A DNA stretch of 64,000 nt from Dehalococcoidia bacterium (lineage in GTDB: Bacteria; Chloroflexota; Dehalococcoidia; Lucifugimonadales; Australimonadaceae), in contig DAOUJA010000042.1 of assembly GCA_034423175.1 (NCBI GenBank), positions 16,610 to 80,609 on the forward strand, given 5' to 3'. Positions 2,479 to 39,677 of this stretch are shown one piece after another. The translations under genes were made by a program, and so were the position numbers. How positions within the stretch are numbered: position 1 is the first letter of the stretch; each line of letters opens with the position of its first letter. The notes below the pieces were generated by a model, which was given only the letters and a program-made list of their open reading frames with translations, searched no databases and was not told where the DNA came from.

Positions 2479-2524
2479 TTGGTCGTCACTTCTCCCGGCT
2501 GACCAGAGCCCCTGAGGAGGGATC

Positions 2525-3520: not shown

Positions 3521-3555
3521 CAGGCGGAACCGGACGATAAGGATGGCGTGGCAGC

Positions 3556-4587: not shown

Positions 4588-4630
4588 CCAGAAACCCGGG
4601 AGACGGGAGAAGAGGAAAGGAGGGGCGACG

Positions 4631-5797: not shown

Positions 5798-5860
5798 CCG
5801 ACCACCCAACCCGTAACCGATTCAGCACTGGCTTGCGCAATGCCAAGAGGGAGGCCACCG

Positions 5861-7084
5861 ATGATCCGCTTCAGTCAGTCCGAAAAGGCAGGGGCCCCGA
5901 CTTCCGGGCGGCGTCACGTCTGGGCAGCGTTCCTTCTAGTGGTCGTCTTGGCGCTGCTGGTTGGGGCATGCGGAGCTGACCCGACCCCGACTCCTACCGC
6001 TACGGCAGTCCCTACCGCAGAACCGGAACCGGAAGTAAGTGGCGCCGAGGCCGAATGGGAAGCAGTCATTGAGGCAGCACAGGAAGAGGGCAGGCTGGAC
6101 ATATTCGCGTGCTGCAACGTATCTGTCCAGATCGAAGCGATCAACGATGCGTTTGAAGCAAAGTATGGCGTTGAGGTGGTTGCCAGCGGAGGGTCGCCTT
6201 CTCAGAGTGTTACCCGGTTGCTCGCGGAGCGAGAGGCGGGCCAGCGGACACTCGACCTCTGGATCAATGGCCCCGTCTCCGGGAGCAGACTGATACAGGG
6301 CAATGCCCTGGACCCGATTCCTCCCTTGCTGCTGCTCCCCGATGTCACGGACACCTCAGACCTGCTGGAAGGCGAGTGGCTCTACTCCGATCCGGATCGG
6401 AGAGAGTTGCTCATCGCATTCGGAGTGAACGCCCGGACTGCGGACATCGTATACAACACGGACAATTTCGATCCCGCAGATGTCGAGTCGTATTGGGACC
6501 TGTTGGACCCGAAGTACAAGGGCAAGATCCTCATCAACGACCCGCGCCAGGGCCAGGGCGGAACCCCACTCACCTTCATGTACACCAACTCCGAGATCGG
6601 CCCTGACTTCCTGACCCGTTTGTTCACCGAGATGGATGTTGTCGTAACGTCAGACCTCCGGCAGGCCGCCGAGTTCCTCGCGAGGGGCGATTTTGCCGTT
6701 TGTCTGTTCGGCTGCTCCACTGAAGTGACAGCCTTGAAGGAACAGGGGTTGCCGGTGGAGGACATATTCCCAACCGTTCCCTCCGAAGGGACCTGGGGTA
6801 GCGCCAGTCCTTACTTCATAGGAGCGGTTGAAGGAGCTCCGCACCCTGCGGCCCGGCAGTTGTACATCAACTGGTTCCTCTCCAGGGAGGGCCAGGCAGT
6901 CGTGCAGGATCTGGTCCGCATGGACTCAGTGCGCCTCGATATTCCGAAAGACAATGTTCTCCCGAGCAGCCGTCGTATGGAAGGAGTGGACTACTTCCTG
7001 TTCCAGTTCTCGCCCACGTATAACACCGACCTGGCTGAAGCTCAGGAGTTCGTCAAGGAGTTAATCGCGAAACTGGAGGGATAG
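5861..7084 (+). CDS. ABC transporter substrate-binding lipoprotein (family-1 / Fe3+-type extracellular solute-binding protein)
   Basis: Start moved to the ATG at 5861 (GGGAGG 7 nt upstream). Signal peptide ends LLVGAC (lipobox) and is followed by a Pro/Thr-rich linker. The body resembles periplasmic-binding-protein family-1 proteins, and a cognate permease lies downstream. Confidence 0.7.
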   Translation: MIRFSQSEKAGAPTSGRRHVWAAFLLVVVLALLVGACGADPTPTPTATAVPTAEPEPEVSGAEAEWEAVIEAAQEEGRLDIFACCNVSVQIEAINDAFEAKYGVEVVASGGSPSQSVTRLLAEREAGQRTLDLWINGPVSGSRLIQGNALDPIPPLLLLPDVTDTSDLLEGEWLYSDPDRRELLIAFGVNARTADIVYNTDNFDPADVESYWDLLDPKYKGKILINDPRQGQGGTPLTFMYTNSEIGPDFLTRLFTEMDVVVTSDLRQAAEFLARGDFAVCLFGCSTEVTALKEQGLPVEDIFPTVPSEGTWGSASPYFIGAVEGAPHPAARQLYINWFLSREGQAVVQDLVRMDSVRLDIPKDNVLPSSRRMEGVDYFLFQFSPTYNTDLAEAQEFVKELIAKLEG

Positions 7085-7255
7085 TCGGTCTTTCGATGCT
7101 CAACAGCAGGGACGGAGGTGGCGCTGTGTGTGACCTGACCGGAACGCGCAGCGCCCCTTCGTCCGGTGGACCTGGCTGCAGCGCCCAATGGATAGGGCGT
7201 CGCGGGGATGTCGTGCCGTCGAAACCGGGCAACCTGCCTGCTCCGGAGCCTGTCT

Positions 7256-8992
7256 ATGCGAACTGAAGCCGCGCAGAGAGTCCCATCCACGCCGAAATGG
7301 ATGCCGGAAAGAGGGACTTTCATCGTAGTCGTGCTGATTATTGCGTTCGGTTTCTACATACTCTATCCAATAGTGCTGATATTCGTGAATAGTTTCAATA
7401 TTGCCAGTGTTGCCCAGGAGCCGATCTATTCTCTCCAGAATTGGCGTGATGCATTCCTGGAACCAGGAATCTGGAAGGCACTCAGGAATACTGTTATGGT
7501 ATTTGTTTCTTACACGGTGATTGCATTTCCCGTCGCTGTACTCATTGCATGGGTGCTCGCAAGGACGGACATCCCCTTCAGTCATGCGCTGGAGTTCTTG
7601 TTCTGGGTTTCGTTCATGCTTCCCCCATTATCTACCGCGATCGGATGGACCTTCCTACTGGATCCTTGGAATGGACTCATCAACAGAGGGCTCGAATACC
7701 TTCCATTTATCAGCGATTCTATTTTCAACATTTACAGCTTTGAGGGCATAGTTTTTGCCCATCTCATGGCGAACAACATCTCGATCAAGGTAATGCTGCT
7801 TACACCCGCTTTCAGGAGCATGGACATGGCCCTGGAGGAAGCGGGACGAGTCTCAGGAGCTTCGAACCTCCGAACCTTGTTGCGGGTCACTCTTCCGGTT
7901 ATGGCTCCGCCCATGGTTATCGTGTTTATGCTGGGTACGCTCCGGCTCTTTCAATCTTTCGAGATCGAGCAGATCCTTGGCGCTCCTGCACGCTTCTTCG
8001 TCTATTCCACCCAGATCTACGGCATGGTCAATGCTGAGCCGCCCGAGACCGGCCAGGCGACAGCTTTGGCGAGCCTCACGCTGATCCTGATCGCCGTCTT
8101 GGTACCCTTCCAGCATTGGTTGACAACTCGGCGACGCTACACAACGCTGACGAGCAACTTCAGGCCGGGCCTCATAAGACTGGGGAAATGGAAAACTCCG
8201 ACGATCACCCTAGTGGCTGGTATCGCCGCTATGCTGACCGTCGTACCCGTCCTGACCCTGGTTGGTGGAAGCTTTATGACGAGGGTTGGCTTCTTTGAGA
8301 TCACTCCGATGTTCACACTGAAGCACTGGCAGGTGGTGCTGGACAATCGTTTCTTCCTCGAGGCACTGAGAACGACCTTGATCCTGAGCACCATTACGGC
8401 CGTGGTCTCTCCATTGCTGTTCTCAGTCGTTGGCTACGTGATTGCCCGCACACGCTGGAGGGGCAGAGGGGCGCTCGACGCGTTGCTATGGAGCTCTTCA
8501 GCCATTCCCGGCATCCTGGCGAGTCTGGGCCTGATGTGGGCATTCCTCAGGACGCCTGGCCTGGAGTGGCTGTTCGGGACGATATGGGCGCTCCTAATCG
8601 TTACAGTATTGCAGGGCCAGTTGCTCGGCACGCAACTCGCCAAGGGTGCCTACCTCCAGGTAGGCGCAGACATGGAAGAGGCCGCTCGCGTTGCTGGTGC
8701 AGGATGGGTGAGGACCTACTTCAAGATATGGCTGCCTTTGATCATGCCGACCATAGTGCTTATGAGCGTCCTGAACTTCGTGATGGCCGCTCAGGCGACC
8801 TCGAATATCATCCTCATCGCTGACCGCGACACGACGACGCTGTCGATACTGGCGCTTCAACTAATGACTGCAGACGACGTTAAACACCTCGAGCAGGCTG
8901 GGATCATCAGTATCTTTCTCATAGGCATCACGCTGATAGTGGCAGTTGTCGCCCGGAGGTTTGGACTTCCCATGGGAGTCCAGCATCGGTGA
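7256..8992 (+). CDS. ABC transporter permease, fused double MalFG-type domain (FbpB/SfuB-like)
   Basis: Polytopic membrane protein with two EAA loops (MALEEAGRVSGASNLRTLLRVTLP and ADMEEAARVAGAGWVRTYFKIWLP). Start at 7256 chosen for the GGAG 7 nt upstream. Markedly lower GC (25/60 G+C at 7321-7380). Confidence 0.8.
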   Translation: MRTEAAQRVPSTPKWMPERGTFIVVVLIIAFGFYILYPIVLIFVNSFNIASVAQEPIYSLQNWRDAFLEPGIWKALRNTVMVFVSYTVIAFPVAVLIAWVLARTDIPFSHALEFLFWVSFMLPPLSTAIGWTFLLDPWNGLINRGLEYLPFISDSIFNIYSFEGIVFAHLMANNISIKVMLLTPAFRSMDMALEEAGRVSGASNLRTLLRVTLPVMAPPMVIVFMLGTLRLFQSFEIEQILGAPARFFVYSTQIYGMVNAEPPETGQATALASLTLILIAVLVPFQHWLTTRRRYTTLTSNFRPGLIRLGKWKTPTITLVAGIAAMLTVVPVLTLVGGSFMTRVGFFEITPMFTLKHWQVVLDNRFFLEALRTTLILSTITAVVSPLLFSVVGYVIARTRWRGRGALDALLWSSSAIPGILASLGLMWAFLRTPGLEWLFGTIWALLIVTVLQGQLLGTQLAKGAYLQVGADMEEAARVAGAGWVRTYFKIWLPLIMPTIVLMSVLNFVMAAQATSNIILIADRDTTTLSILALQLMTADDVKHLEQAGIISIFLIGITLIVAVVARRFGLPMGVQHR

Positions 8993-9052
8993 ATACGCTT
9001 GTCCATGCTGGTCGAAGTAACAGGTCCTCAAACTCCACTGGAGGTGTACATC

Positions 9053-9589
9053 ATGGAATCCCCGGCTTTCTGGTCCGTGGTCATGCGCCGAGGCGATGGG
9101 GTATTGATTCCCGCTGTCGAAGATCTGACCCGTGACGAACTGCGGAGTCAACCCGCCGGTCCCGCTACCAACCCTATCGGTTGGCTGGTGTGGCATTCGG
9201 CCAAGGTGCAGGATGACTACATCGCTCTCATCGGCGGTAGTAAGACAGTATGGGACGAGCAGGGCTGGAATGCCCGCTTCCCCAACGCTGAACACGCGCT
9301 GCACGTAGAGCCCAAACAAGTCGGCGAGTTCGACCCAGTCGATGCCGCTACGTTGCTTGGTTACTACAATGCAGTTCGAGTAAGGGCTAAGGCCATACTT
9401 GACGCCCTGTCCCCGGAGGACTTCGATCGCGTCCTGGAACCAATATATCCTGGCGGAAGAGCGATGCCTCTTTCCGACGTCCTGGCGATGGTTGCCAGCG
9501 ACAACATCCAACACATAGGTCAGATAGCCTACCTACGGGGCATGCTCCGCGAGCAAGGCTGGTATCAGAACAGGCGGGCACTTGCCTAG
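9053..9589 (+). CDS. DinB-superfamily protein (DinB_2 / putative thiol-dependent transferase fold)
   Basis: ATG at 9053 follows GGAGGTG. Has a DinB-like four-helix pattern: TRDELRSQPAGPATNPIGWLVWH...DNIQHIGQIAYLRG (conserved His residues). Confidence 0.6.
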   Translation: MESPAFWSVVMRRGDGVLIPAVEDLTRDELRSQPAGPATNPIGWLVWHSAKVQDDYIALIGGSKTVWDEQGWNARFPNAEHALHVEPKQVGEFDPVDAATLLGYYNAVRVRAKAILDALSPEDFDRVLEPIYPGGRAMPLSDVLAMVASDNIQHIGQIAYLRGMLREQGWYQNRRALA

Positions 9590-9955: not shown

Positions 9956-10031
9956 TGGTGGAGCCGAGGGGACTCGAACCCCTGACCCCCTGCTTGCAAA
10001 GCAGGTGCTCTCCCAACTGAGCTACGGCCCC
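9956..10031 (-). tRNA. tRNA-Ala (anticodon TGC)
   Basis: The reverse complement GGGGCCGTAGCTCAGTTGGGAGAGCACCTGCTTTGCAAGCAGGGGGTCAGGGGTTCGAGTCCCCTCGGCTCCACCA folds as a cloverleaf. It has the G3:U70 Ala identity pair, anticodon loop TTTGCAA and an encoded CCA. Confidence 0.92.
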
Positions 10032-10074: not shown

Positions 10075-11931
10075 TTACCGGGCGGGGGCTCCGGGCAGAG
10101 ACAGCCCTTCCATCGTCTCCGGCACTACGCTGAAACGCTCGAACGGCGGCATGAAGTACGCACCCGAGATCCTCCCGGCGAGCTCGGACAGCAGCTCACG
10201 GCTGAGCGCGATGCCTTCCTTGCCGCCTGCGTCTCCCCGGTACTCGGCCAGGTCGATGCGGCGCATCACGTCTTCCGGCACCACGATGCCCGGCACTTCG
10301 TTGTGCAGGAACCGCGCGTGCCGGGCGTTGCGCAGCGGCAGCACGCCCATGATCACGGGCAGCGGGAATCCCCCCAGCAGCGACCACACGCGCTCCACGT
10401 GCTCCGCGGCGTAGACCGGCTGCGTGAGCAGGAAGTGCGCCCCCGCTTTCACCTTGCGCTCCAGCACGCGGAGCTCGTTGTCCAGGTCCGGCGCATTGAA
10501 GTTCAGCGCCGCACCGATGAAGAACGACGTCGGCTGCCCGATCTCCCGTCCGTTGGCGTCGACGCCCTCGTTGAACCCCGCCATCAGCCGGATCAGGCCG
10601 GACGCCGTCACGTCGCTCACTGCGGTCGCATACGGATAGTCGCCCGTCAGTGGCACGTCGCCCATCACGGTGAACACGTTCCGCAGTCCCAGCGCGTGCG
10701 CGCCGAGCAGGTCCGAGTGCAGCGCCAGCAGGTTGCGGTGGCGGATCGCCATGTGCATCACCGTCTCTACTCCCAGCCGCGACTGCACGAGGCTTCCCGT
10801 GGCGAGGGCGCTCATCCTCCCCTGCGCGCGCGGGCTGTCCGCTACGTTCACCGCATCGACGGTCCCCGCGATGCCGCGAAGTTTGTCCAGCGTCCCGCTG
10901 ACGTCGAATCCCCGCGGCGGCGCAAGCTCCACCGTCACGACGAACTCGCCGTGGGCGATGCGCTCGGCCAGCCCCGTCGGAGGAGCGGCCGGGGTCTCAG
11001 CGCGCTGCGCCGGCGTACGGACTGGGGCGGCCGGGCGGCGTATCGAGGACTGCAAGACGCCGCGCACCGCGTCGCGGACCGCGGCCATGTGGGCAGGGGA
11101 CGTTCCGCAGCAACCCCCGATGGCCGACGCCCCAGCGCGTGCGATCTCACGCGCCGTCTCCGCGAAGTACTCCGGGGACGCCGCGTACTGCAGCCGTCCG
11201 CCAACGTAGGCGGGCAGGCCGGCGTTTGGTTGAACGATGAGTGGCACGGTTGCTGTAGCTGACATGCGCTCTACTACGCTCAGCAGCAGGTCAGGCCCCA
11301 CGCTGCAGTTGGCGCCCAGCGCGGCCAGTCCCGCGTCGTTCAACGCCGCGACGACGTCTTCCGGCGAGTCTCCGCCGGGTGTCAGGCCGTCGCCCGTGAA
11401 CGTCATCTGGGCGATGACCGGAAGCTCGGAAACGGACTGCACCGCCTCGATCGCCTGCCTGAGCTGTGTCAGCGAGGTGAACGTCTCGAGCAGGATCAGG
11501 TCCGCTCCGGCGTCCGAGAGCGCTGCGGCCTGCTCAGCGAAGACGTTCCAGGCCGACGCCGGAGAGAAGAGACCAGCCCCGGTCGCGTCGGGCGGCAGCG
11601 GGCCCATTGCCCCCGCCACCCACACATTCTGGCCGTGCAGCCGCACTGCCTCTTTCGCGATCGCAACTCCGCCGCGGTTCAGCTCTTCGACGCGCGAAGC
11701 CATCCCGTGCGCGCCGAGTTTGGCCGCGTTCGCACCGAACGTGTTCGTCTCGATGAGTTCCGCCCCCGCCTGAAGATAGGAGAGGTGCACTCCCTTTACG
11801 ACATCCGGCTGGGCGATGTTCGCCGGTTCCGGCAGGGCGGCAGTCATGCCGTGTTCGTATAACTGCGTGCCGGTGGCGCCGTCGCAGAGAAGCAGACCAC
11901 GGGATAGACGTTCGGAGAGCGATAGAACCAT
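10075..11931 (-). CDS. yitJ: bifunctional homocysteine S-methyltransferase / 5,10-methylenetetrahydrofolate reductase (YitJ-like)
   Basis: ORF trimmed to the ATG at 11931 (MVLSLSERL). N-terminal S-methyltransferase domain (LLCDGATGTQL, zinc motif GGCCGTSPAH) is followed by an MTHFR domain of about 290 aa. Same architecture as B. subtilis YitJ. Confidence 0.85.
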   Translation of the reverse strand: MVLSLSERLSRGLLLCDGATGTQLYEHGMTAALPEPANIAQPDVVKGVHLSYLQAGAELIETNTFGANAAKLGAHGMASRVEELNRGGVAIAKEAVRLHGQNVWVAGAMGPLPPDATGAGLFSPASAWNVFAEQAAALSDAGADLILLETFTSLTQLRQAIEAVQSVSELPVIAQMTFTGDGLTPGGDSPEDVVAALNDAGLAALGANCSVGPDLLLSVVERMSATATVPLIVQPNAGLPAYVGGRLQYAASPEYFAETAREIARAGASAIGGCCGTSPAHMAAVRDAVRGVLQSSIRRPAAPVRTPAQRAETPAAPPTGLAERIAHGEFVVTVELAPPRGFDVSGTLDKLRGIAGTVDAVNVADSPRAQGRMSALATGSLVQSRLGVETVMHMAIRHRNLLALHSDLLGAHALGLRNVFTVMGDVPLTGDYPYATAVSDVTASGLIRLMAGFNEGVDANGREIGQPTSFFIGAALNFNAPDLDNELRVLERKVKAGAHFLLTQPVYAAEHVERVWSLLGGFPLPVIMGVLPLRNARHARFLHNEVPGIVVPEDVMRRIDLAEYRGDAGGKEGIALSRELLSELAGRISGAYFMPPFERFSVVPETMEGLSLPGAPAR

Positions 11932-11949
11932 GGGCGGGATCCTGTCTGG

Positions 11950-11958
11950 ATTGTACCA
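11950..11958 (-). promoter_or_regulatory. candidate extended -10 promoter element (TGgTACAAT) for the yitJ-like gene
   Basis: Minus-strand TGGTACAAT lies about 20 nt upstream of the ATG at 11931 in an 82-bp divergent spacer. Sequence match only. Confidence 0.3.
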
Positions 11959-12013
11959 GTGCCCTTCTCCGCCGTTGTGCAGAGCAGGCTGGGCGGCTAT
12001 CCTGCGCCTCTCT

Positions 12014-13624
12014 ATGGCGGGCCCGGAACTCACGCTCATCAACTGGCTGCTGGCGGCATCCCCGGTAGTTCTCCTTGTCGTCGCCATCCTCTGGCTCGAT
12101 TGGAGCGCGCCGCGCGCAGGAGCCGCTGCCTGGCTGCTGGCGCTCGCGTTGGCGCTGCTCGTCTTTGGCGCGGCGCGGGACCACACGGCCATCGCAAGTG
12201 CCAAGGGACTGAGCCTCGCCGTATTCGTTCTCACCATCGTCTGGACGTCCGTCTACCTCTTTAACATGGTGGACCGCTTGAAAGGCATCGACGCCATCGG
12301 GCGCACGATGGCCGCGCTCGCCAGCGACCGCCTCGTACAGGCATTGCTGATCGGCTGGGGCTTCTCCAGCTTCATCCAGGGCATAACGGGGTTCGGCGTG
12401 CCCGTGGCCGTCTCCGCTCCGCTGCTCATCATGCTCGGCTTCCCCCCTGCCCGTGCCGCTGCGATGGCGCTTGTCGGCCACGGCTGGGCCGTGACGTTCG
12501 GCTCGATGGGGTCCTCCTACTACACCATTCAATTGGTAACCGGGATCGAGGGCGAGGTCATCGCGCCGCACATGGCGCTGCTCTTCGGGCCCATCATCGT
12601 CGCGAGCGGCATGCTGGTGGCCCACATCCAGGGCGGCCTGGGTGCGGTGCGCCGCAGCCTGCCGCTCGTGGTTGTCACCGGCGTGCTCATGGCTGTGGCG
12701 ATGTACGCCCTGGCCCGGAGTGGGGCGCCGCAGATAGCCTCCACCGTTCCGGGTGTGCTCGGCATGGTGGCGCTCGCCCTGCTCTCCCGCACGCCGCTCC
12801 TGCGGAGCGCGCCGCAAACGGAGGCCGCGCCCGAAGCCCCGCCCGCCGGAGCGTCGGACGGGCCGACCGCTCCGCCGATGCCGTTCCTCCTCGCCTTCAT
12901 GCCCTACCTCCTGCTCATCACCCTGAGCGTCATTTCCCAGATCGGCCCGGTGAAGGAGGCGGTGCGCGGCATACACTGGTCGCTCGACTACCCCGCCTTC
13001 ACAACCGCCCAGGGGTTCGCCGTTGCCGCCGCGAACGATTACGCGCCCATACGCATCCTGAACCACCCTGCCCCGCTCATCTTCTTCAGCATCGTCATCA
13101 GCGCGGTTGTCTACGTTCTCGCGAAGCGATGGCGCAGGGGCGTCGCGTGGGAAGCGATGAAGCTTACCTATGCGCAGAGCCTCAGCTCCTCCATCGGCGT
13201 GACGACCATGGTGATGATGGCCGTCGTCATGGCGGACACCGGCATGACCGTGCTCCTCGCGCAAGGCATTGCCAACGCTTCCGGCCCCATCTTCCCGTTC
13301 GTCTCCCCGTTCATCGGCCTGCTCGGCTCCTTCATGAGCGGCAGCAACACCAACTCCAACGTGATGTTCGGCCTCCTGCAACTTGAAACAGCGAAGGAAC
13401 TGGGTATCGGCACTGTCACCATCTCCAGCATCCAGTCGATCGGCGCCTCCGTCGGCAGCCCCATGGCTCCGGCCAAGGTGCTCGTGGGGGCCGCGGTCGT
13501 CGGACTCGCGGGTAAAGAGCGCGACATCTTCCGCATCGTCATCCCCTACATCCTCGGGCTCGTCGTTCTCGCCGGCATCGAGGCCATCATCATCATCGAA
13601 CTGCTGCCTGCGCTTTCGAGGTAA
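12014..13624 (+). CDS. lctP: L-lactate/glycolate permease (LctP family)
   Basis: About 536-aa polytopic membrane protein starting MAGPELTLINWLLAASPVVLL. The GFSSFIQGITGFGVPVAV and SFMSGSNTNSNVMFG blocks are typical of LctP-family permeases. Confidence 0.85.
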   Translation: MAGPELTLINWLLAASPVVLLVVAILWLDWSAPRAGAAAWLLALALALLVFGAARDHTAIASAKGLSLAVFVLTIVWTSVYLFNMVDRLKGIDAIGRTMAALASDRLVQALLIGWGFSSFIQGITGFGVPVAVSAPLLIMLGFPPARAAAMALVGHGWAVTFGSMGSSYYTIQLVTGIEGEVIAPHMALLFGPIIVASGMLVAHIQGGLGAVRRSLPLVVVTGVLMAVAMYALARSGAPQIASTVPGVLGMVALALLSRTPLLRSAPQTEAAPEAPPAGASDGPTAPPMPFLLAFMPYLLLITLSVISQIGPVKEAVRGIHWSLDYPAFTTAQGFAVAAANDYAPIRILNHPAPLIFFSIVISAVVYVLAKRWRRGVAWEAMKLTYAQSLSSSIGVTTMVMMAVVMADTGMTVLLAQGIANASGPIFPFVSPFIGLLGSFMSGSNTNSNVMFGLLQLETAKELGIGTVTISSIQSIGASVGSPMAPAKVLVGAAVVGLAGKERDIFRIVIPYILGLVVLAGIEAIIIIELLPALSR

Positions 13625-18325: not shown

Positions 18326-19417
18326 ATGACAATGGAGCTTTTCGGCAACGAGCACAAGGCGGATATCGACGGCATCGCGCGCGTCAAGGTCATCGGCGTC
18401 GGCGGCGGGGGGTGCAACGCCGTTAACCGGATGTACCGCGAGCGTGTCCCGCACGTCGAGTACCTCGCCGTCAACACGGACGCCCAGCACCTTCTGCGGC
18501 TCGACGTCCCGGTCAAGATTCGCATCGGCGACACGATCACGCGCGGACTCGGCGTCGGTGGCGACCCCGAGATCGGGCGCACCGCGGCCGAAGAGTCCCG
18601 CGAGGAGATCTACGAATCGGTCCGTGGCGCGGACATGCTCTTCATCGCCAGCGGCATGGGCGGCGGCACCGGCACGGGCGCGGCGCCCGTCGTTGCAGAG
18701 GTCGCGCGGGAGACCGGCGCGCTCACCATCGCCGTCGTAACCAAGCCCTTCCGCTTCGAGGGCCGCAGGCGCGGCAAGAACGCCGACGACGGACTGGCGC
18801 GTCTCCGGGAGGCCGTCGATACCCTCATCGTCGTTCCGAACGATCGCCTCGGCGCCATGTGCGACGACGACCTCTCCGCTGAAGACGCCTTCAAGCTCGC
18901 CGACGACGTGCTGCGGCTCGGCGTCAAGTCCATCGCAGAGCTCGTGACGGTCCCCGGCGAGATCAACCTGGACTTCGCCGACGTCAAGACCATCATGAGC
19001 GGCGCGGGCCCGGCATGGATGTCCATCGGTTCCGCTCATGGCGACAACCGGTCCGTCGAAGCCGCCAAGAGCGCTATCCACAGCCCCATGCTGGACGTCA
19101 ACATCGAGGGCGCGCGGGGCGTGCTCCTCAACATCACCGGCGGCCCCAACATGACCCTCAAGGAAGTGCAGCGGGCAGCCGACGTTATCGCCAACTCCGT
19201 GGACCCTGACGCCAACATCATCTTCGGCATGGTCACGGACCCCAAGATGGAGGACGAGATGTGCGTGACCATCATCGCCACCGGCCTCCCCAGCATCGAG
19301 CAGATGAGCCTCAACGACGACGGCATCGCCGAGTTCCTCCGCCGCGCCATCAGCGACGAGACCGACTTCGACCTGCCGCCGTTCCTCCGCCCCAGCAACC
19401 GTCAGGCGACGGCGTAA
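18326..19417 (+). CDS. ftsZ: cell division GTPase FtsZ
   Basis: VIGVGGGGCNAVN, NTDAQHL and the tubulin signature GMGGGTGTGAAPVVAE. Has a C-terminal conserved peptide DLPPFLR. Confidence 0.95.
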   Translation: MTMELFGNEHKADIDGIARVKVIGVGGGGCNAVNRMYRERVPHVEYLAVNTDAQHLLRLDVPVKIRIGDTITRGLGVGGDPEIGRTAAEESREEIYESVRGADMLFIASGMGGGTGTGAAPVVAEVARETGALTIAVVTKPFRFEGRRRGKNADDGLARLREAVDTLIVVPNDRLGAMCDDDLSAEDAFKLADDVLRLGVKSIAELVTVPGEINLDFADVKTIMSGAGPAWMSIGSAHGDNRSVEAAKSAIHSPMLDVNIEGARGVLLNITGGPNMTLKEVQRAADVIANSVDPDANIIFGMVTDPKMEDEMCVTIIATGLPSIEQMSLNDDGIAEFLRRAISDETDFDLPPFLRPSNRQATA

Positions 19418-21631: not shown

Positions 21632-21839
21632 CGCACCCGTCGTTCCTGCGGAGGCAGGGACCTCGCCTCTTGCCCCTCCGTAGGGGCGTCTCTGTGAGGC
21701 GCCCTGTCTGGTCCCCTCGCCCTGCAATGGGAGAGGGCGAGGGAGAGGGTGCTCCGGGGTGGCGCTCTCCGGTGCTATACTCTCCGCACGCGCCGGCACG
21801 AATACCGCTGGCGCTTCGTTGTACGGAGGGAAAGGCCTC

Positions 21840-32979: not shown

Positions 32980-34349
32980 GTGGCCTGCGCCTGCTCCACC
33001 GCCTCTTCCATCCGGCGGTGAAGTTCGCCCACCAGCGGGATGGCCGGGCCGTAGCGGTCGGACTCCCAGACGGCGCCGCCCTTGTGGTACTGCGCGCGGG
33101 TGTTGCGCGTCAGCTCGGGGACGTCCTTCGCCCAGTCGGGGTTCAGCCACGCGTCCGCGGGCCTGCCGCCTCCGTACAGGATGGCTATCTCTCCGCCGTC
33201 GTGCGGGAGAGCGTCGATGTCGGCCTCGTCGCGGAAGACGTTCATCGGGTCGCCGCCCTCCTCAACGACGCGCATCTGCTCGTCCAGCTGGCGGCGGAGG
33301 AAGACGACCGGGATGTCGGTGCGCCCGAGGTTCTCCGCGGTGCGGTCGGTGAGCGGTCCCTGCGCCCACCAGCCGATGAAGTCCTGGTTGAGGATGCAGT
33401 CCAGGACGGGCTTGCCGTCCTCGTCGTAGATCGGCACCTCGTAGTAGGGCACCTTGTCCTGTTTCGGGGCTTCGACGCCGGGCGGCGCCGCGTAGGTGTT
33501 GTAGGAGATGTGGTAGGTGTGCTCGTCGTCTATGGGCACGCGGATCTGGAACTCGCTCCAGGGCGCGCCCGCGGCGTTCTGCTCGGTGTAGAACGGGAAG
33601 ATGACGGTGGAGTGGCGGGACTTCTTGTCCGCCGGAGCGCCGAGCTCCTTGGAGAAGATGACGCCCTTCTCCATGCCGTACTGCGTGGGGTGGACGTACA
33701 GGTCCTTGATGCCCACGCCCTGCTCCATGAACGACTTGCTCATCCGCGCGAGGCGGTCGTGGTCGCCCATCTTCTCCAGGATGTACTGGAACTGGTAGCC
33801 GTGGAGCCAGACGCCGTGCGTGGGGTCGCCGGTGTTCTCCTGGCACTGGAGCCAGTTGGCGTTGAGGACGGCGATGCCCATCTGCCGGACGGAGTTGGGC
33901 CAGACGAAGAGGTCCCACGGCGGCAGCAGCGGCGCGGGCTGCGGGCCCATGTAGGCGAAGAGCAGGCCGCCCATCTCCCTCACCGGGTAGCCGGGGAGCT
34001 TCAGCCTGTCCTTGAACATGTCGCGCCGGGCCTCGAGCGGAGCGTCGACGCATGCGCCGGTCTCGTCATACATCCAGCCGTGGTACGGGCAGCGGAGCCC
34101 GTTCTCATCCGGGATACCCCATCGCAGGTCGACGGCGCGGTGCATGCACCGCTGGCCGATCAGGCCGATGTTGCCGGACCTGTCGCGGTAGCAGGTGAGG
34201 TCCTCGCCCAGCAGGCGGACGGCCTGCACGGGGTCCTCGTCGAGCTTCGCGCTGGGCAGGAAAGGCACCCAGTAGCGGCGCAGCAACTCGCCACCCGGCG
34301 TGCCGGGGCCGACACGAGCCAACCGATCGTTCTGTTCCGCAGTCAGCAT
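32976..34349 (-). CDS. Rieske [2Fe-2S] non-heme-iron oxygenase, alpha-subunit type (phthalate-family / class IA-like)
   Basis: Trimmed to the ATG at 34349 (GGGAGGG RBS). Rieske motif CMHR-x16-CPYHGW and mononuclear iron motif DPTHGVWLH (D-x2-H-x4-H). No beta subunit, ferredoxin or reductase gene is nearby. Confidence 0.85.
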   Translation of the reverse strand: MLTAEQNDRLARVGPGTPGGELLRRYWVPFLPSAKLDEDPVQAVRLLGEDLTCYRDRSGNIGLIGQRCMHRAVDLRWGIPDENGLRCPYHGWMYDETGACVDAPLEARRDMFKDRLKLPGYPVREMGGLLFAYMGPQPAPLLPPWDLFVWPNSVRQMGIAVLNANWLQCQENTGDPTHGVWLHGYQFQYILEKMGDHDRLARMSKSFMEQGVGIKDLYVHPTQYGMEKGVIFSKELGAPADKKSRHSTVIFPFYTEQNAAGAPWSEFQIRVPIDDEHTYHISYNTYAAPPGVEAPKQDKVPYYEVPIYDEDGKPVLDCILNQDFIGWWAQGPLTDRTAENLGRTDIPVVFLRRQLDEQMRVVEEGGDPMNVFRDEADIDALPHDGGEIAILYGGGRPADAWLNPDWAKDVPELTRNTRAQYHKGGAVWESDRYGPAIPLVGELHRRMEEAVEQAQAT

Positions 34350-34428
34350 GTTCACACCCTCCCTGGCGGGCTTTCGGCGCAAGCATACCACTCCGCGCGC
34401 GGCGCGCGCGAGGCTCCTGAGCAGGCAC

Positions 34429-35835
34429 TCATACCCAGATGTCCAGCGACGGCGGTTCCATGAAGGCGAGCGCGAGTGCATCCGCGCGGTCGGGGGAGGC
34501 GATGCCGCGCTTGCGGAGCTTCGCCTTGCTCTCCAACCGGATGCGCCCGGTGGAGGAGACGTCGTAGCGAAGGGCGAGGAGCTGGCCCACGAGAACGGAG
34601 TCGTTGGGGATGGCGGCGGCATCCTCGCGGAGGAGGCGGGCGACCTCCCAGAAGATCTCGGCGCGGAGGTCGGCGAACTGGGAGGGACGCCGGGCCTTGC
34701 CGCCCACGTCCACGCCGATGACGGGGACGCCGAGCTGGGAGAGCCGGTCGACGACGCCGGCGCCGACGCCCGTACCGTCCACGAAGACGGCGGGGACTTC
34801 GAGGGCGTCGGACCAGCCCTTCACCTCGTCGGCGACCTGCATGTTGTCGAGGCCGCGCTTGAGGGGGATGAGGCGCTCGACGCGGTAGCCGCGCCGGATG
34901 CAGATGACGGACTCGTCGGCGCCGAAGCGCGCGACGTCCACGCCCATGCGGTAGGGGAGGCGCTCCGAGCCCTCACCCGCCGCGCTGTCGCGCAGCGACC
35001 TCTCCCCGGGGGAGAGGCTGGAAGGCGACGTTCCTGCCTCCGCAGGAACGACGGCAGTGGCTTCGTGGCGGGCGATGGCGCGGTCGACGTGGTTGCGGGT
35101 GGTGAGGGAGTCCTCGAGGGCGTCGGGGAACTGTCCGAGGACGGACGCGATGTAGAGCGGGGAGTCGTCTCCCCAGTCGCGCCGGTGGTGCTCGACGTCC
35201 GCGGGGGTGACGAGGCCGGGGACGCGGAAGCGCTTGCGTCGGAAGTTGGGGGAGTCGAACGCGGAGATGGTGATCTGGTGGTAGAGGGCGGACTTGGCGT
35301 GGTGGGACTCGTAGAGCTCGCCCTCGTGGGAGAGGGGGTTGCCGATGAGGAGCACCTTGGCGGGGTTGAGGCGCTTGAGGGCCTCCATGTAGGCCTGCTT
35401 GACGCCCTGGGCCTCCGTGACGACGACGAGGAGGTTGGGGGAGTGGAAGCCCTGGATGTTGTGGTGGGAGTTGGAGGAGAAGGCGATGGCGAAGCGGTCG
35501 TCGTCGATGACGTACTTGTTCTCGGTGACCTTGCCGGGGAGCGCGTCGCCGGCGGCGGCGACCGCGAGCCGGAGCTCGTGCCAGAGGATGTCCTTGATCT
35601 GACGGAGCGTGGGGCCGGTGACGACGACCTTGGCGTGGGGACGCGTGTGGAGCCACCAGACGATGGCGCGCGCGGCTGCCCAGTCCTTGCCGGACGAGTT
35701 GCACGCGGCGACGGAGACGCGGGGGTGCTTTGCGAGGGCTTTCAAGATCTCCTCCTGCTTGTCGTAGGGTTTGCCCGCTGCGCCGAGGATGTCCTTGACG
35801 AAGCCGACGGGGTTGTTCCAGTAACGAGCAAACAT
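34429..35835 (-). CDS. phage terminase large-subunit homologue (ATPase + RNaseH-like nuclease domains), solitary
   Basis: 468 aa. Walker A-like AACNSSGKDW, Walker B-like LLVVVTEAQG, nuclease-domain blocks MGVDVARFGADESV and SPDRADALALAF. No other phage genes are in the window, and GC and GC3 look host-like. Confidence 0.75.
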   Translation of the reverse strand: MFARYWNNPVGFVKDILGAAGKPYDKQEEILKALAKHPRVSVAACNSSGKDWAAARAIVWWLHTRPHAKVVVTGPTLRQIKDILWHELRLAVAAAGDALPGKVTENKYVIDDDRFAIAFSSNSHHNIQGFHSPNLLVVVTEAQGVKQAYMEALKRLNPAKVLLIGNPLSHEGELYESHHAKSALYHQITISAFDSPNFRRKRFRVPGLVTPADVEHHRRDWGDDSPLYIASVLGQFPDALEDSLTTRNHVDRAIARHEATAVVPAEAGTSPSSLSPGERSLRDSAAGEGSERLPYRMGVDVARFGADESVICIRRGYRVERLIPLKRGLDNMQVADEVKGWSDALEVPAVFVDGTGVGAGVVDRLSQLGVPVIGVDVGGKARRPSQFADLRAEIFWEVARLLREDAAAIPNDSVLVGQLLALRYDVSSTGRIRLESKAKLRKRGIASPDRADALALAFMEPPSLDIWV

Positions 35836-35867
35836 GGCCTTCCTCGACCCGATACGCCTTCTCGACC

Positions 35868-35902
35868 CCGTTAACGCAAAAAAGCCGCCTGGCCTTGTGC
35901 TG
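35868..35902 (-). terminator. intrinsic (rho-independent) terminator on the minus strand
   Basis: Minus strand reads AGCCGCTTGG-CAGCACAAGG-CCAGGCGGCT followed by TTTTTT. The stem is 10 bp with one G:U pair. It lies 33 nt upstream of the terminase-like start codon. Confidence 0.5.
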
Positions 35903-36097
35903 CCAAGCGGCTCGTCCGCTCTGCCCGGGGTCCGTGGGGGTTGTGGGACCTATGACGTTAGTATGACATATGCGCGTCGTCTACGCAATAGGGCGGGTGG
36001 CGTGTACTCGGCAGGAGCGGGCTGCCCACGGCCTCATGCTATCCTCTACAACCCGAGGATGGGCGGTTGGACAGAGTTTAGAGGAGGAGAGATCGAT

Positions 36098-36787
36098 ATG
36101 AGCACAACCCATCCCCAGCACGGCAGTGGCGGCGCCATCTACACCGACGCGCTGGGCACTACACACGCATGGCCAAGTTCGCGAACTTGTCCAATCTGCA
36201 ATCACCTTGCACAAGTTGAATGGCGAGTGGTTCTGCGTATCGAACACCAGGACGGAGTGGAATGGCGTATTATGACTTGGGAGGCCATTGGGCAGAGCAT
36301 TCTAGGGTTCAACGCAAAAACAGTCTTAGGTCATTGCTTTGCATGCAACCTGCAATCTCTCCATGAGCCCGACGGGGCCTTGCTCTGGCCTAAAGAATCA
36401 AGTCTCCCACTCGCTAACGAAGACATGCCGTCAGATGTCAAAGAGTTCTATGACGATGCTCGTCAGACAGCAGTGAATTCAAAGCGGGGTGCACTAGTAC
36501 TACTTCGATTTTGTATGGAAGCATTGCTCTCGCTCCAAGGATATAGCGACGGCACTTTGTACAATAGAATCGAACAACTATACGTCAGCCAACGCGGAGG
36601 TAAACGGCTAAGGGACGCACTGAGTGCAGTTCGATTAGTGGGCAACTCTGCTGCGCATGACAATGAAATCGTTTGGGACAGGGAAGACCTTTCTCCTCTA
36701 TTCACGCTGGTAAACCTCATCGTAGATGAGTTCTATACCAAAGATGATTCAATTGCCGACATACTCAGCAGTGTAAAGCAGGAGTGA
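36098..36787 (+). CDS. Zn-ribbon + DUF4145 (HEPN-like) domain protein
   Basis: ATG at 36098 follows AGAGGAGGAGA. N-terminal CPICNH...(about 45 aa)...CFACN four-Cys pattern. The C-terminal half has the DUF4145 hallmarks (FYDDARQTAVNSKRGALVLLRFCMEALL...SAVRLVGNSAAHD). About 48% G+C on a sampled line (36481-36540: 29/60). Confidence 0.6.
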   Translation: MSTTHPQHGSGGAIYTDALGTTHAWPSSRTCPICNHLAQVEWRVVLRIEHQDGVEWRIMTWEAIGQSILGFNAKTVLGHCFACNLQSLHEPDGALLWPKESSLPLANEDMPSDVKEFYDDARQTAVNSKRGALVLLRFCMEALLSLQGYSDGTLYNRIEQLYVSQRGGKRLRDALSAVRLVGNSAAHDNEIVWDREDLSPLFTLVNLIVDEFYTKDDSIADILSSVKQE

Positions 36788-36828
36788 AGGCATGCATAGC
36801 GCTACCGTTGGACGAGGGCGCGTTGAGT

Positions 36829-36855
36829 GGGCTGAAGCTCGCTAGCCTTCAGCCC
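36829..36855. terminator. perfect 9-bp hairpin (GGGCTGAAG-N9-CTTCAGCCC) between convergent genes
   Basis: Lies in the 119-bp gap between the DUF4145 gene (+) and the DUF5615 gene (-). No T-tract on either side. Confidence 0.35.
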
Positions 36856-36906
36856 ATCTCATCACACTGCTTGGGCGGCCTCCTCAACGTCGGATTCGGA
36901 GAGTGG

Positions 36907-37269
36907 TCATGGGGCAGTCTCTCTGACACGGATGCGCGAGTCCTCCACGATCCACAATTGACCTTGCAGAGACACCCCGGACAGCACACTGAGCAGCCTC
37001 GCGCCAACCTCCATCAGGTAGTCCCGTTCTTGTTTACTCAGCCGGAAGACCACCAGTCCGGGATAGTGCTGTGGCGGGTACACCCTTATGTCCGCAAAGT
37101 CGAGGTCCAAGGTCACCAGCGCACGATCTTCACTCTGGCAAACGGACGCAATGCGTCGGTCGCTTGCGCCGACCATCCCTTGCTCAGGGACGGTAACCGC
37201 GTCATGGCCTCCCTCAACGAAAAGCCGCGCAAGCTCTCTGGGAAGATTCTCGTCCAGCTTGAAACGCAC
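36907..37269 (-). CDS. DUF5615 family PIN-like toxin (partner of DUF433)
   Basis: GTG at 37269 lies 8 nt downstream of the DUF433 stop. The N-terminus VRFKLDENLPRELARLF matches the typical MKFLLDENL start of DUF5615/Mut7-C-like proteins. Confidence 0.65.
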   Translation of the reverse strand: MRFKLDENLPRELARLFVEGGHDAVTVPEQGMVGASDRRIASVCQSEDRALVTLDLDFADIRVYPPQHYPGLVVFRLSKQERDYLMEVGARLLSVLSGVSLQGQLWIVEDSRIRVRETAP

Positions 37270-37276
37270 GGATGTC

Positions 37277-37591
<315 letters not shown>

Positions 37592-37754
37592 CTACGACAC
37601 CCGCATCCGCGAGCTTACGGCGCAGATACGGGAGAACCAGGCCCGCGTCAGTGAGATCATCGGTGTGCTCGCCGGGATGCAGTCGGACATCGCCCGCCTC
37701 GACGCCGCTTCGTGAGCGCGCATCTCTCGGGGACACGTTGGTGTTGGCGGGGCG

Positions 37755-37818
37755 TCTCCCCGAGAGATTCCTCGGCTTCGCTCGGAATGACAAGGTGGGT
37801 GCGCTCGCGATGGCAGGG
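37755..37818. repeat. intergenic repeat family 1, copy A (CCCCGAGAGAT...CTTCGCTCGGAATGACAAGG...TGCGCTCGCGATGGCAGG)
   Basis: Shares the CCCCGAGAGAT head, a CCGAG/CTCGG hairpin and two GCTCnnnATGrCAAG sub-motifs with copies at 37974-38030 and 38781-38875. Confidence 0.7.
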
Positions 37819-37831
37819 AGGAAGAGAGAAC

Positions 37832-37908
37832 TGGTCGGGGAGCCGGGATTTGAACCCGGGGCCTCTACGTCCCGAACGTAGCGCGCTACCGGACTGCGCT
37901 ACTCCCCG
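37832..37908 (-). tRNA. tRNA-Pro (anticodon CGG)
   Basis: The reverse complement CGGGGAGTAGCGCAGTCCGGTAGCGCGCTACGTTCGGGACGTAGAGGCCCCGGGTTCAAATCCCGGCTCCCCGACCA folds as a cloverleaf with anticodon loop TTCGGGA and an encoded CCA. Confidence 0.9.
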
Positions 37909-37973
37909 ACGCGGGAAGCGGCCCCACGGAAGGCCGCTTCGTCGATTCTAGCACAGGGAGGCGCTCCCGCCTC

Positions 37974-38030
37974 CTCCCCGAGAGATGTTTCGGCTCCGCT
38001 CAACATGACAAGCCGCCAGACCTGAACAGC
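37974..38030. repeat. intergenic repeat family 1, copy B
   Basis: CTCCCCGAGAGATGTTTCGGCTCCGCTCAACATGACAAGCCGCCAGACCTGAACAGCGG. Near-identical head and tail to copy C, including the CTGAACAG tail. Confidence 0.7.
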
Positions 38031-38034
38031 GGGG

Positions 38035-38742
38035 CTAGGAGCGCTGCGCCAGGCGCTCTCCGGCCTCGCGGAGGTCTTTCGGGGACTCGACGGACTTCCA
38101 GTAGGCCCGGCTCTCGAATGCCGCCAGGCGGCGCTCCGAGGCGAGCGCGGGGAACGTCTCGGTCTCGTGGTCGCCCACGTCCGGGAAGCGTTCGATGGCC
38201 TCCCGCGTGAGGACGTACACGCCGGCGTTGATCCAGTACGGCAGGGGCGGCTTCTCCGTGAAGCCGGTCACCAGCGCGCCGTCCGTCTCGACAATGCCGA
38301 ACGGGCTGATCATGGAGGTGAGCAAGACAGTCGCCAGGGCGCCCGACCGCTCGTGCGCCTCCACCATGGGAGCGAGCGGCTGGTCCGTGAGCACGTCGCC
38401 GTTCGTGGCAATGACGGCGGGGTCCGACAGGCCCGCCTCACGGTAGCCGTTCTTGTACGCGCCGCCCCGTCCGAGCGGGGACGCCTCCGCGATGCAACGC
38501 ACCTCCAGCCCCTCGATGCGCGGCGACGCGAAGTGCCCGGCGATGACCTCGTGCATGTAGCCGGTGAGCAGGAACGCGCGCTCGATGCCGTTGGCGCGCA
38601 GCCACGCGAGGTGGTGCTCGACGATGGGCCTGCCGTTGACTTCGACCATGGGCTTCGGCCTGTCCTGCGTGAGGGGCCAGAGGCGCTCGCCCTTGCCTCC
38701 GGCCAGCACGAGCGCAGTGTTCGGTTGGGCTTTCGCACTCAC
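38035..38742 (-). CDS. sugar-phosphate nucleotidyltransferase (NTP_transferase family)
   Basis: LVLAGGKGERLWPLTQDRPKPMVEV signature (G-x-G-x-R-L) and a GlmU/RmlA-like fold pattern. 235 aa. Confidence 0.8.
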   Translation of the reverse strand: MSAKAQPNTALVLAGGKGERLWPLTQDRPKPMVEVNGRPIVEHHLAWLRANGIERAFLLTGYMHEVIAGHFASPRIEGLEVRCIAEASPLGRGGAYKNGYREAGLSDPAVIATNGDVLTDQPLAPMVEAHERSGALATVLLTSMISPFGIVETDGALVTGFTEKPPLPYWINAGVYVLTREAIERFPDVGDHETETFPALASERRLAAFESRAYWKSVESPKDLREAGERLAQRS

Positions 38743-38780
38743 ACGGCCAGTCTACCGGGCAGGCGAATGGCGGGTAAACG

Positions 38781-38875
38781 CCCCCCCGAGAGATGTTTCG
38801 ACTCCGCCTCCGGCTTCGCTCAACATGACAAGGGGGGCTGCGCTCAACATGGCAAGCCCCCGGCTCTGAACAGTT
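38781..38875. repeat. intergenic repeat family 1, copy C (full bipartite copy)
   Basis: CCCCCCGAGAGATGTTTCGACTCCGCCTCCGGCTTCGCTCAACATGACAAGGGGGGCTGCGCTCAACATGGCAAGCCCCCGGCTCTGAACAG. Confidence 0.7.
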
Positions 38876-39677
38876 GCCGAGATGCCTTGTTTCCGATGGC
38901 CGCGCGCTCCTATACTCCGCGCCGGAACCTGCCGTGGCCGCCGCACCCGAACCCCTGCTGTCAGTCATCCTGCCGACGTACAACGAGCGCGAGAACGTGG
39001 CCGTGCTCGTTCCGAAGCTCCTCGACGTCCTCTCCGACGTCCCCTGCGAGGTGATCGCGGTAGACGACGGCAGCCCGGACGGCACGGCAGACGCCGTGCG
39101 GGAGATGGCGGCTGTCGACGCGCGCGTGCGGCTCGTCGAGCGCCCCGGAAAGGCGGGGCTCGCGAGCGCGGTGTTCGCGGGGGCGGCGGAGGCCAGGGGC
39201 CGGTTCGTGGCCGTCATGGACGCCGACCTCTCGCACGAGCCCGAGGTCCTGCCGGAGATGCTCGAACGCGCCAGGCAGGGCTGTGACGTGGTCATCGGCT
39301 CGCGCTACGTCCCCGGCGGGGCGTTCGCCCACCAGCCGCTGGCGCGGCGCTTCATCAGCCGGGTGCTCAACACGGCCGTCCGCGTGTTGCTCATGCTGCC
39401 CCAGCGGGACGTGCTGACCGGCTACGCGCTCTGCCGGCGGGAGCTGCTCACCCGGATGCCGACGCGCTACTCGTCGCGGGGCTTCAAGTGGCTGCTCGAA
39501 CTGCTGGCGGTGTACAGTGGGCTCCGGGTGCACGAGTCCCCCATCGTCTTCCAGAGCCGGTACGCCGGGGTGTCAAAGGCGGACGCGCGGGAAGCTCTGT
39601 GGCTCGCGATGCTGTGCCTGCGGCTCGCGCCGCGACGGGTGCGCCGGGCCCCGGCTACTTCCGCATCCGCGACCTGA
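38874..39677 (+). CDS. family-2 glycosyltransferase, polyprenol-phosphate mannose/glucose synthase-like
   Basis: SVILPTYNERENV, VDDGSPDGT and MDADLSHEP (DXD) blocks as in Ppm1/DPM1-type GT2 enzymes. Start uncertain (TTG at 38874 or GTG at 38934). Confidence 0.8.
   Translation: MPRCLVSDGRALLYSAPEPAVAAAPEPLLSVILPTYNERENVAVLVPKLLDVLSDVPCEVIAVDDGSPDGTADAVREMAAVDARVRLVERPGKAGLASAVFAGAAEARGRFVAVMDADLSHEPEVLPEMLERARQGCDVVIGSRYVPGGAFAHQPLARRFISRVLNTAVRVLLMLPQRDVLTGYALCRRELLTRMPTRYSSRGFKWLLELLAVYSGLRVHESPIVFQSRYAGVSKADAREALWLAMLCLRLAPRRVRRAPATSASAT

Follow-up and report, generated by a model that had tools for sequence, protein, structure and literature searches.

A homologue of the phage-defence RNase RAZR (PD-T7-4) in a variable low-GC slot of an uncultured Dehalococcoidia bacterium

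The DNA analysed here, referred to as the window, is a stretch of 64,000 nucleotides (nt) from a Dehalococcoidia bacterium (assembly GCA_034423175.1, contig DAOUJA010000042.1, positions 16,610 to 80,609 of the forward strand). The gene in question is an intact open reading frame (ORF) on the plus strand at 36098-36787, running from an ATG at 36098 to a TGA at 36785-36787 and encoding 229 amino acids. By sequence homology, we assign its product to the RAZR family (formerly PD-T7-4), which is a known system and not a new class of defence. The gene lies between a lone homologue of the terminase large subunit (TerL) and a putative toxin-antitoxin (TA) pair next to a tRNA gene (Table 1), all located as a first-pass annotation of this DNA had described them; the strong ribosome-binding site that it had reported is likewise present, at the distance from the ATG given in the table. 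A gene caller placed the start so as to yield a product of 274 amino acids. We prefer the 229-amino-acid start because related genes begin at the same codon, as GTG, and because conservation extends from residue 2. Contigs carrying related loci are identified below by handles beginning with L.

Table 1. Features of the RAZR-family gene and its surroundings, in window coordinates.
Feature	Coordinates	Strand	Basis or detail
Lone TerL homologue	34429-35835	-	Divergent from the RAZR gene; phrog_2 E=1.8e-40
Intrinsic-terminator-like hairpin	35882-35913	-	12-bp stem, 8 GC pairs, then TTTTGCGTT
RAZR cassette, DNA block common to relatives	36029-36873	+	The gene with 69 nt of 5' flank and 86 nt of 3' flank
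Shine-Dalgarno-like GGAGGAG	36083-36089	+	8 nt 5' of the ATG, read from the sequence
N-terminal extension, residues 1-29, GSGGA motif	36098-36184	+	Subclade-specific
Putative Cys4 zinc-ribbon sensor domain (ZFD), residues 30-95	36185-36382	+	CPIC 36188-36199, CFAC 36335-36346
Inter-domain linker, residues 98-111, PKESSLPLANEDMP	36389-36430	+	Equivalent to RAZR-Ec residues 66-79
DUF4145 / divergent HEPN RNase domain, residues 112-229	36431-36784	+	R179...H187 at 36632-36658
5' remnant of membrane-protein gene, ~30 codons, MKACIALPLDEGALSGLK...	36784-36875	+	Matches the start of the gene in L003 and L004; then the TA pair and tRNA-Pro
DUF5615 (PIN-like) putative toxin, 120 amino acids	36907-37269	-	Pfam PF18480 E=4.6e-21
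DUF433 putative antitoxin, 77 amino acids	37277-37510	-	Pfam PF04255 E=3.1e-22
tRNA-Pro(CGG), right-hand islet border	37832-37908	-	ARAGORN; Rfam tRNA 68.6 bits

PD-T7-4 was described as a single-gene defence system recovered by functional selection from Escherichia coli (Vassallo et al. 2022; PMC9519451), and was renamed RAZR, for ring-activated zinc-finger RNase, in 2026 (Zhang et al.; PMC13017515). In this protein, a sensor of the zinc-ribbon type is joined to a DUF4145/HEPN RNase (PMC13017515). The E. coli protein, RAZR-Ec, is not toxic alone, and becomes toxic once a 24-mer assembles around ring-shaped phage proteins, with Gp77 of SECphi27 and the portals of T7, T3 and SECphi18 as triggers; the activated protein cleaves single-stranded RNA non-specifically, blocking translation and aborting infection (PMC13017515). 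This ring-activated abortive-infection mechanism is known from experiments with RAZR-Ec and RAZR-Kv (PMC13017515). In RAZR-Ec, R146 and H154 are required, with alanine substitutions abolishing defence, the linker between the domains is functionally required, and V21, D179, D180 and R184 mediate higher-order oligomerisation (PMC13017515). The first-pass annotation had proposed that the window gene encodes a defence or abortive-infection effector composed of a zinc-ribbon sensor and an HEPN-like DUF4145 nuclease, and this is what experiments have shown for the homologue RAZR-Ec (PMC9519451; PMC13017515). Its further statement that no system with this two-domain architecture had been characterised is out of date, given the descriptions of RAZR/PD-T7-4 in E. 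coli.

Several profile and pairwise comparisons point to the same family. The PADLOC model for PD-T7-4 (PDLC04109) matches residues 30-226 of the window protein over profile positions 15-195 of 211 (E=5.6e-28, 95.9 bits), and the DUF4145 domain recognised in the first-pass annotation is matched significantly by Pfam PF13643 across residues 121-200 (E=2.9e-10; 40.5 bits against a cut-off of 23.1); NCBIfam contains no model for the protein. The sole sequence matched by phmmer in the Protein Data Bank (PDB) was that of entry 9y9c (E=2.2e-14), whose 24 chains, named "DUF4145 domain-containing protein", are RAZR in the RAZR-Gp77 ring. Residues 4-207 of RAZR-Ec, recovered through a second PDB search, served as the comparison sequence; the window protein aligns with it by BLASTP from the first CxxC through the C-terminus (28% identity over 205 amino acids, E=1e-19), and a 141-member family profile aligns with it by hhalign over 202 columns spanning both domains (probability 100%, E=1.9e-65). 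A word-indexed homologue search gave just four close relatives, and an exhaustive HMMER search was needed for the family as a whole, returning 1800 family representatives at E<=1e-3, of which 409 reach E<=1e-10; among the matches listed, most are 200-280 amino acids long. When contigs of genomes were searched with the window protein, a Dehalococcoidia metagenome-assembled genome (MAG) was the sole return, and viral contigs gave no return. We set aside the PHROG label "DNA binding protein" (phrog_1305) as a guide to function, since it is at odds with the RNase activity seen in experiments and was probably prompted by the zinc ribbon.

Residues expected of a RAZR protein are retained in both halves. 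The CPIC...CFAC four-cysteine pattern that had been read as a zinc ribbon is present at residues 31-34 and 80-83, with C31/C34 and C80/C83 aligning with C16/C19 and C49/C52 of RAZR-Ec; the four cysteines are kept in 98-99% of the 141 family representatives, so the pattern is not a chance occurrence. The two knuckles are separated by 45 residues, a typical spacing in this family (median 40, range 20-93). By contrast, the 30 residues before the first cysteine are unusual against a family median of 15, and the G[ST]GGA motif that they contain occurs in seven of the 141 representatives. The linker is 14 amino acids long in both the window protein and RAZR-Ec, with P98 invariant and P104, D109 and P111 kept in 81-94% of the family. 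In the C-terminal domain, the R-x2-GN-x3-H motif noted in the first-pass annotation (VRLVGNSAAHD) holds up, and its family-wide conservation argues against chance: R179 is found in 96% of representatives, G182 and N183 in 96-98% and H187 in 100%, and P98, A121, S128, R137 and H187 do not vary at all. R179 and H187 align with R146 and H154 of RAZR-Ec at identical R-x7-H spacing, which is seen in 132 of 135 representatives. The positions of the salt bridges between dimers in RAZR-Ec (D179, D180 and R184) correspond to D210, E211 and K215, so that the charges are kept.

Structure prediction agrees with this picture. The AlphaFold2 model built with the family alignment has a mean predicted local distance difference test score (pLDDT) of 87.2, with most of the C-terminal domain above 90, residues 1-11 below 50, and the rest of the N-terminal extension at 70-85. 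It consists of a beta-rich N-terminal domain with one helix at residues 61-70 and a C-terminal domain of five helices, and we are confident of this two-domain fold as modelled. The best Foldseek matches in the PDB were to HEPN proteins, namely 2hsb (probability 1.00) and 7ae6/7ae8, and a search of BFVD gave one unnamed viral match (E=4.5e-8). We regard the fold evidence as consistent with the family assignment and not decisive for it; the assignment is carried by the sequence comparisons.

Four orthologues with 83-88% amino acid identity were compared: those of the window, L001 (identical to L005; both from the Dehalococcoidia MAG, OY764542.1), L003 and L004. The ratio of non-synonymous to synonymous substitution rates (dN/dS) is 0.15-0.20 over the whole gene, indicating purifying selection, and breaks down into 0.29-0.44 for residues 1-90, which include the sensor and are the fastest-evolving part, and 0.04-0.09 for residues 91-229, which include the nuclease. 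The rate of evolution of the sensor domain is thus about sixfold that of the RNase domain, and this small set of orthologues matches the pattern of fast sensor and slow nuclease reported for RAZR. On the branch leading to the window copy, there are five non-synonymous and 15 synonymous changes.

The base composition of the gene is foreign to its surroundings. The GC content of the ORF is 0.504, whereas the window averages 0.663 (standard deviation 0.043, 690-nt windows), and its GC content at third codon positions (GC3) is 0.50, as compared to 0.93-0.94 in the TerL, Rieske, NTP-transferase and UvrD genes of the window. All four orthologues have GC3 values of 0.49-0.57 despite synonymous divergence (dS) of 0.39-0.52 and a GC3 of 0.93 in genes of their own genomes, and there is no net movement towards GC on the window branch, with six AT-to-GC and ten GC-to-AT changes. 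This persistence may result from selection acting on base composition or on expression, or from recurrent exchange with a pool of low-GC genes. The first-pass annotation had singled out this ORF for its low GC; the counts that it gave were reproduced exactly (29/60 at 36481-36540 and 50/60 at 18661-18720), but the ORF is not the lowest point of the window, as the 690 nt at 7291 have a GC content of 0.491. That minimum belongs to a second low-GC stretch, the only other part of the window with a similar AT-richness, at 5840-8992 (lowest, 0.49, at ~7291), near a tRNA-Ala gene at 9956-10031. We considered and rejected a second defence islet at 6-9 kb: the region is an operon for an ABC transporter, with genes for the solute-binding protein and for a fused permease, and has zero matches to defence models.

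Side by side with RAZR-Ec (E. coli UMB1727; PDB 9y9c), the window protein has the same overall plan, that is, a single polypeptide of ~220 amino acids with a Cys4 ribbon, a 14-residue linker and a C-terminal DUF4145/HEPN domain bearing the catalytic R-x7-H pair, as well as acidic-acidic-basic residues at the predicted interface between dimers. In both, the sensor is the fastest-evolving domain and the gene occupies a foreign, variable DNA location. The two differ in the N-terminal extension (30 residues with GSGGA, as compared to 15 residues), in the distance between the CxxC knuckles (45 residues, with the predicted helix, as compared to 29), and in their hosts, the window deriving from an uncultured, high-GC Chloroflexota-type organism. 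Their settings differ as well, since the window locus has no nearby integrase and is flanked by the lone TerL gene and a truncated membrane-protein gene.

Canonical HEPN RNase toxins (HEPN-MNT, 7AE6/7AE8; AF_0298, 2HSB), of which the 7AE6 toxin is the comparison structure chosen by the RAZR authors (PMC13017515), share with the window protein a helical bundle carrying an Arg...His pair on one helix, and a dimer with a composite active site would be expected here too. Unlike in the canonical toxins, however, the window locus has no MNT antitoxin, and the R-x7-H of the window protein falls outside the canonical R-x4-6-H range. The protein is therefore placed in the divergent DUF4145 branch, in agreement with the RAZR authors (PMC13017515). 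Regulation also differs, being by AMPylation or antitoxin binding for the canonical toxins and by oligomerisation templated on a phage ring for RAZR. Avs (antiviral STAND) proteins resemble RAZR in concept, in that direct sensing of a phage portal or terminase leads to oligomerisation that activates a nuclease effector (PMC13017515). This is an analogy only, since the window protein is far smaller, has no STAND NTPase domain and is not homologous to Avs.

The TerL gene next door matches phage TerLs along its full length in 505 phage records by tblastn (97-99% coverage, 31-33% identity); the Pfam terminase match alone is insignificant (E=0.13). Its GC3 of 0.93 is host-like. It is present on six contigs of this lineage including that of the window, with 84-89% amino acid identity in L001 (7288-8676), L004 (127-1500), L011 (152-1639), L012 (131-1495) and L013 (6001-7365), and with a dN/dS of 0.24-0.34; it is found both with and without an adjacent RAZR gene. 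The lone TerL has perhaps been domesticated; alternatively, it may be a relic of great age. The N-terminus of the L001 copy is frameshifted. Within the spacer between TerL and RAZR, just upstream of the TerL start, the strong terminator-like hairpin lies in DNA shared with L001; there, two minus-strand genes (one PaREP1-like, 170 amino acids; the other 61 amino acids) come before it, both of them missing from the window. A dispersed, GC-rich repeat of 32 nt that contains palindromes occurs at ~35000-35060 and 21636-21668 of the window and at 1131-1163, 7845-7874 and 20271-20302 of L001; the copy in the window TerL lies inside an in-frame insertion of 13 amino acids, and the insertion is missing from L001 and L004.

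Comparison of related contigs shows that the shared DNA consists of two blocks, one made up of TerL with 160 nt (34429-35996) and the other of the RAZR cassette, and that the outer flanks vary by genome. By blastn, the cassette is 82.7% identical to L001 10075-10918, 85.6% to L004 and 86.5% to L003, with homology ending at 36873-36875. Contig L013 shares 95% identity with L001 in each of the two flanks and carries TerL together with the PaREP1 gene, while lacking RAZR; the slot (1940-5140) is filled by a different 3.2-kb low-GC segment, of ~50% GC. The slot thus behaves as a variable hotspot for low-GC cargo. The L013 cargo comprises a gene for a trypsin-like peptidase, with weak PADLOC matches to the protease parts of RT-Protease and LmuA, followed by an operon for an AAA_28-like P-loop protein (249 amino acids) and a 217-amino-acid protein of unknown type; these genes could be uncharacterised defence candidates. 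The RAZR islet of L001 additionally holds a PLD-family nuclease at 11458-12108 on the minus strand (DrmC/MkoB-like, E=4.5e-10) and a PaREP1-family protein at 8896-9408 on the minus strand.

A search for a tRNA-derived direct repeat or an integrase that would define an integrated island found neither, the only repeats being dispersed ones of ~40 nt, and an Rfam scan of 34000-39500 found nothing besides the tRNA. These ~40-nt intergenic repeats (CTCCCCGAGAGAT...TCGGCT.CGCTC...ATGACAAG) occur in the window at 37756-37794, 37974-38012 and 38781-38873, flanking tRNA-Pro on both sides, and recur 3' of TerL in L011 (1738-1870) and L013 (7421-7565). They look like repetitive extragenic palindromic (REP) elements or miniature inverted-repeat transposable elements (MITEs). 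Among distant homologues, the one in L007 adjoins a SMODS and SLATT pair, that in L006 adjoins a DNA methyltransferase and a PIN TA pair, and that in L010 sits within cytochrome c maturation genes, while some stand alone.

Taken with the published work on RAZR, we consider it likely that the window protein is a functional member of the family that acts as a phage-triggered HEPN RNase. We propose that its N-terminal Cys4 ribbon would bind zinc and, by homology, serve as the sensor, binding a large ring-shaped phage protein comparable to the portal dodecamers or the 24-mer recombinase-like ring recognised in E. coli. Oligomers of the protein would wrap around this ring, thereby repositioning the dimeric DUF4145/HEPN domains, and the composite R179/H187 active site would then cleave single-stranded RNA non-specifically. 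Translation would stop, and the infected cell would release no phage, which would amount to defence in the native host. Without a phage ring the protein would be inert, and it would therefore need no antitoxin. The ring is probably the portal, or some other large ring-forming protein, of phages that infect the host.

Several points weigh against this proposal. Identity to RAZR-Ec is just 28%, and the sensor domain is very different, with the 30-residue N-terminal extension and with H36 taking the place of V21, an oligomerisation residue that makes a hydrophobic contact in RAZR-Ec. Functional evidence for the family is confined to members from Enterobacteria. The Foldseek E-values for the HEPN matches are weak (0.02-0.3), and the same search of the PDB did not return 9y9c. 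A scan for the sigma-70 consensus found no promoter for the gene, a consensus that may not apply to this organism. Lastly, the three closest relatives have RAZR translationally coupled to a gene for a membrane protein, and that gene is truncated in the window, so there is a small chance that the protein depends on a partner.

The coupled gene raises an alternative, in which RAZR is one part of a two-gene module, or of a three-gene module with TerL, and the window copy, having lost its partner, is crippled or re-purposed rather than autonomous. In L003 (1237-1830) and L004 (2586-3197), a protein of 197-203 amino acids with one transmembrane helix and a helical C-terminal part, which matched no Pfam or PADLOC family, is encoded by a gene whose GTG start overlaps the RAZR stop, an arrangement that indicates translational coupling; the window keeps only ~30 codons of it, and TerL adjoins RAZR in the window, L001 and L004 despite their differing outer flanks. 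However, a frameshift interrupts the partner gene in L001 (10828-11438) too, so that this gene has been lost repeatedly while RAZR stayed intact, and the excess of synonymous changes on the window branch is consistent with ongoing constraint. Moreover, there is no conserved partner among the distant homologues, which (including P0005-P0008) have neither TerL nor the membrane-protein gene, L013 has TerL without RAZR, and RAZR-Ec functions as a single gene (PMC9519451; PMC13017515). We therefore consider the module unlikely. The coupled gene of the closest relatives nonetheless qualifies the description of the gene as stand-alone in the first-pass annotation. We also give little credence to a more elaborate scheme, in which a long-resident TerL of host composition would anchor the variable low-GC slot, RAZR in this lineage would normally act with the coupled single-pass membrane protein as a second effector or regulator of a kind not known for RAZR of E. 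coli, the GSGGA extension would adapt the sensor to another phage ring or to TerL/portal complexes, and the window copy would be a natural derivative without its partner.

An origin of the gene as a passenger of a decayed prophage, either as a moron or for superinfection exclusion, with TerL as the sole other remnant and no defence benefit to the host, would account for the adjacent full-length TerL homologue and for the foreign GC3 of RAZR. Indeed, eight Streptococcus temperate phages bear RAZR homologues, and E. coli homologues of PD-T7-4 often abut an integrase (PMC9519451). We nonetheless regard mere hitch-hiking as quite improbable. TerL has a GC3 of 0.93 as compared to 0.50 for RAZR, and therefore the two were not acquired together recently; there are no other phage genes, and no integrase, within 10 kb on either side in the window; and RAZR is under purifying selection. 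In any case, a prophage origin would leave the molecular function unchanged. A further alternative, raised with the first-pass annotation, is that the ORF is the degenerate remnant of a protein with a DUF4145 domain, either of a type I restriction-modification (R-M) system or of the Abi type. DUF4145 is also found in larger defence proteins, and the 930-residue PADLOC profile PDC-M16A has a weak match (E=3e-4) to the DUF4145 part only. This alternative is effectively refuted, since the whole 229-amino-acid protein, zinc ribbon and linker included, aligns end to end with the RAZR family of ~211-219 amino acids, most listed representatives are of similar length, and no R-M subunit lies within 10 kb on either side in the window. 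An adjacent or fused R-M subunit was found at none of the eight distinct homologue loci (L001, L003, L004 and L006-L010); the nearest R-M-type gene is an ORF with an HsdR_N domain ~7 kb from RAZR in L001.

The assignment of the window gene to RAZR extends a ring-sensing immune protein of understood mechanism to an uncultured, high-GC lineage of the Chloroflexota type. Its variant sensor, with the N-terminal extension, and the membrane partner that occasionally accompanies it could be used to probe how RAZR proteins vary in their specificity and in the geometry of their activation.

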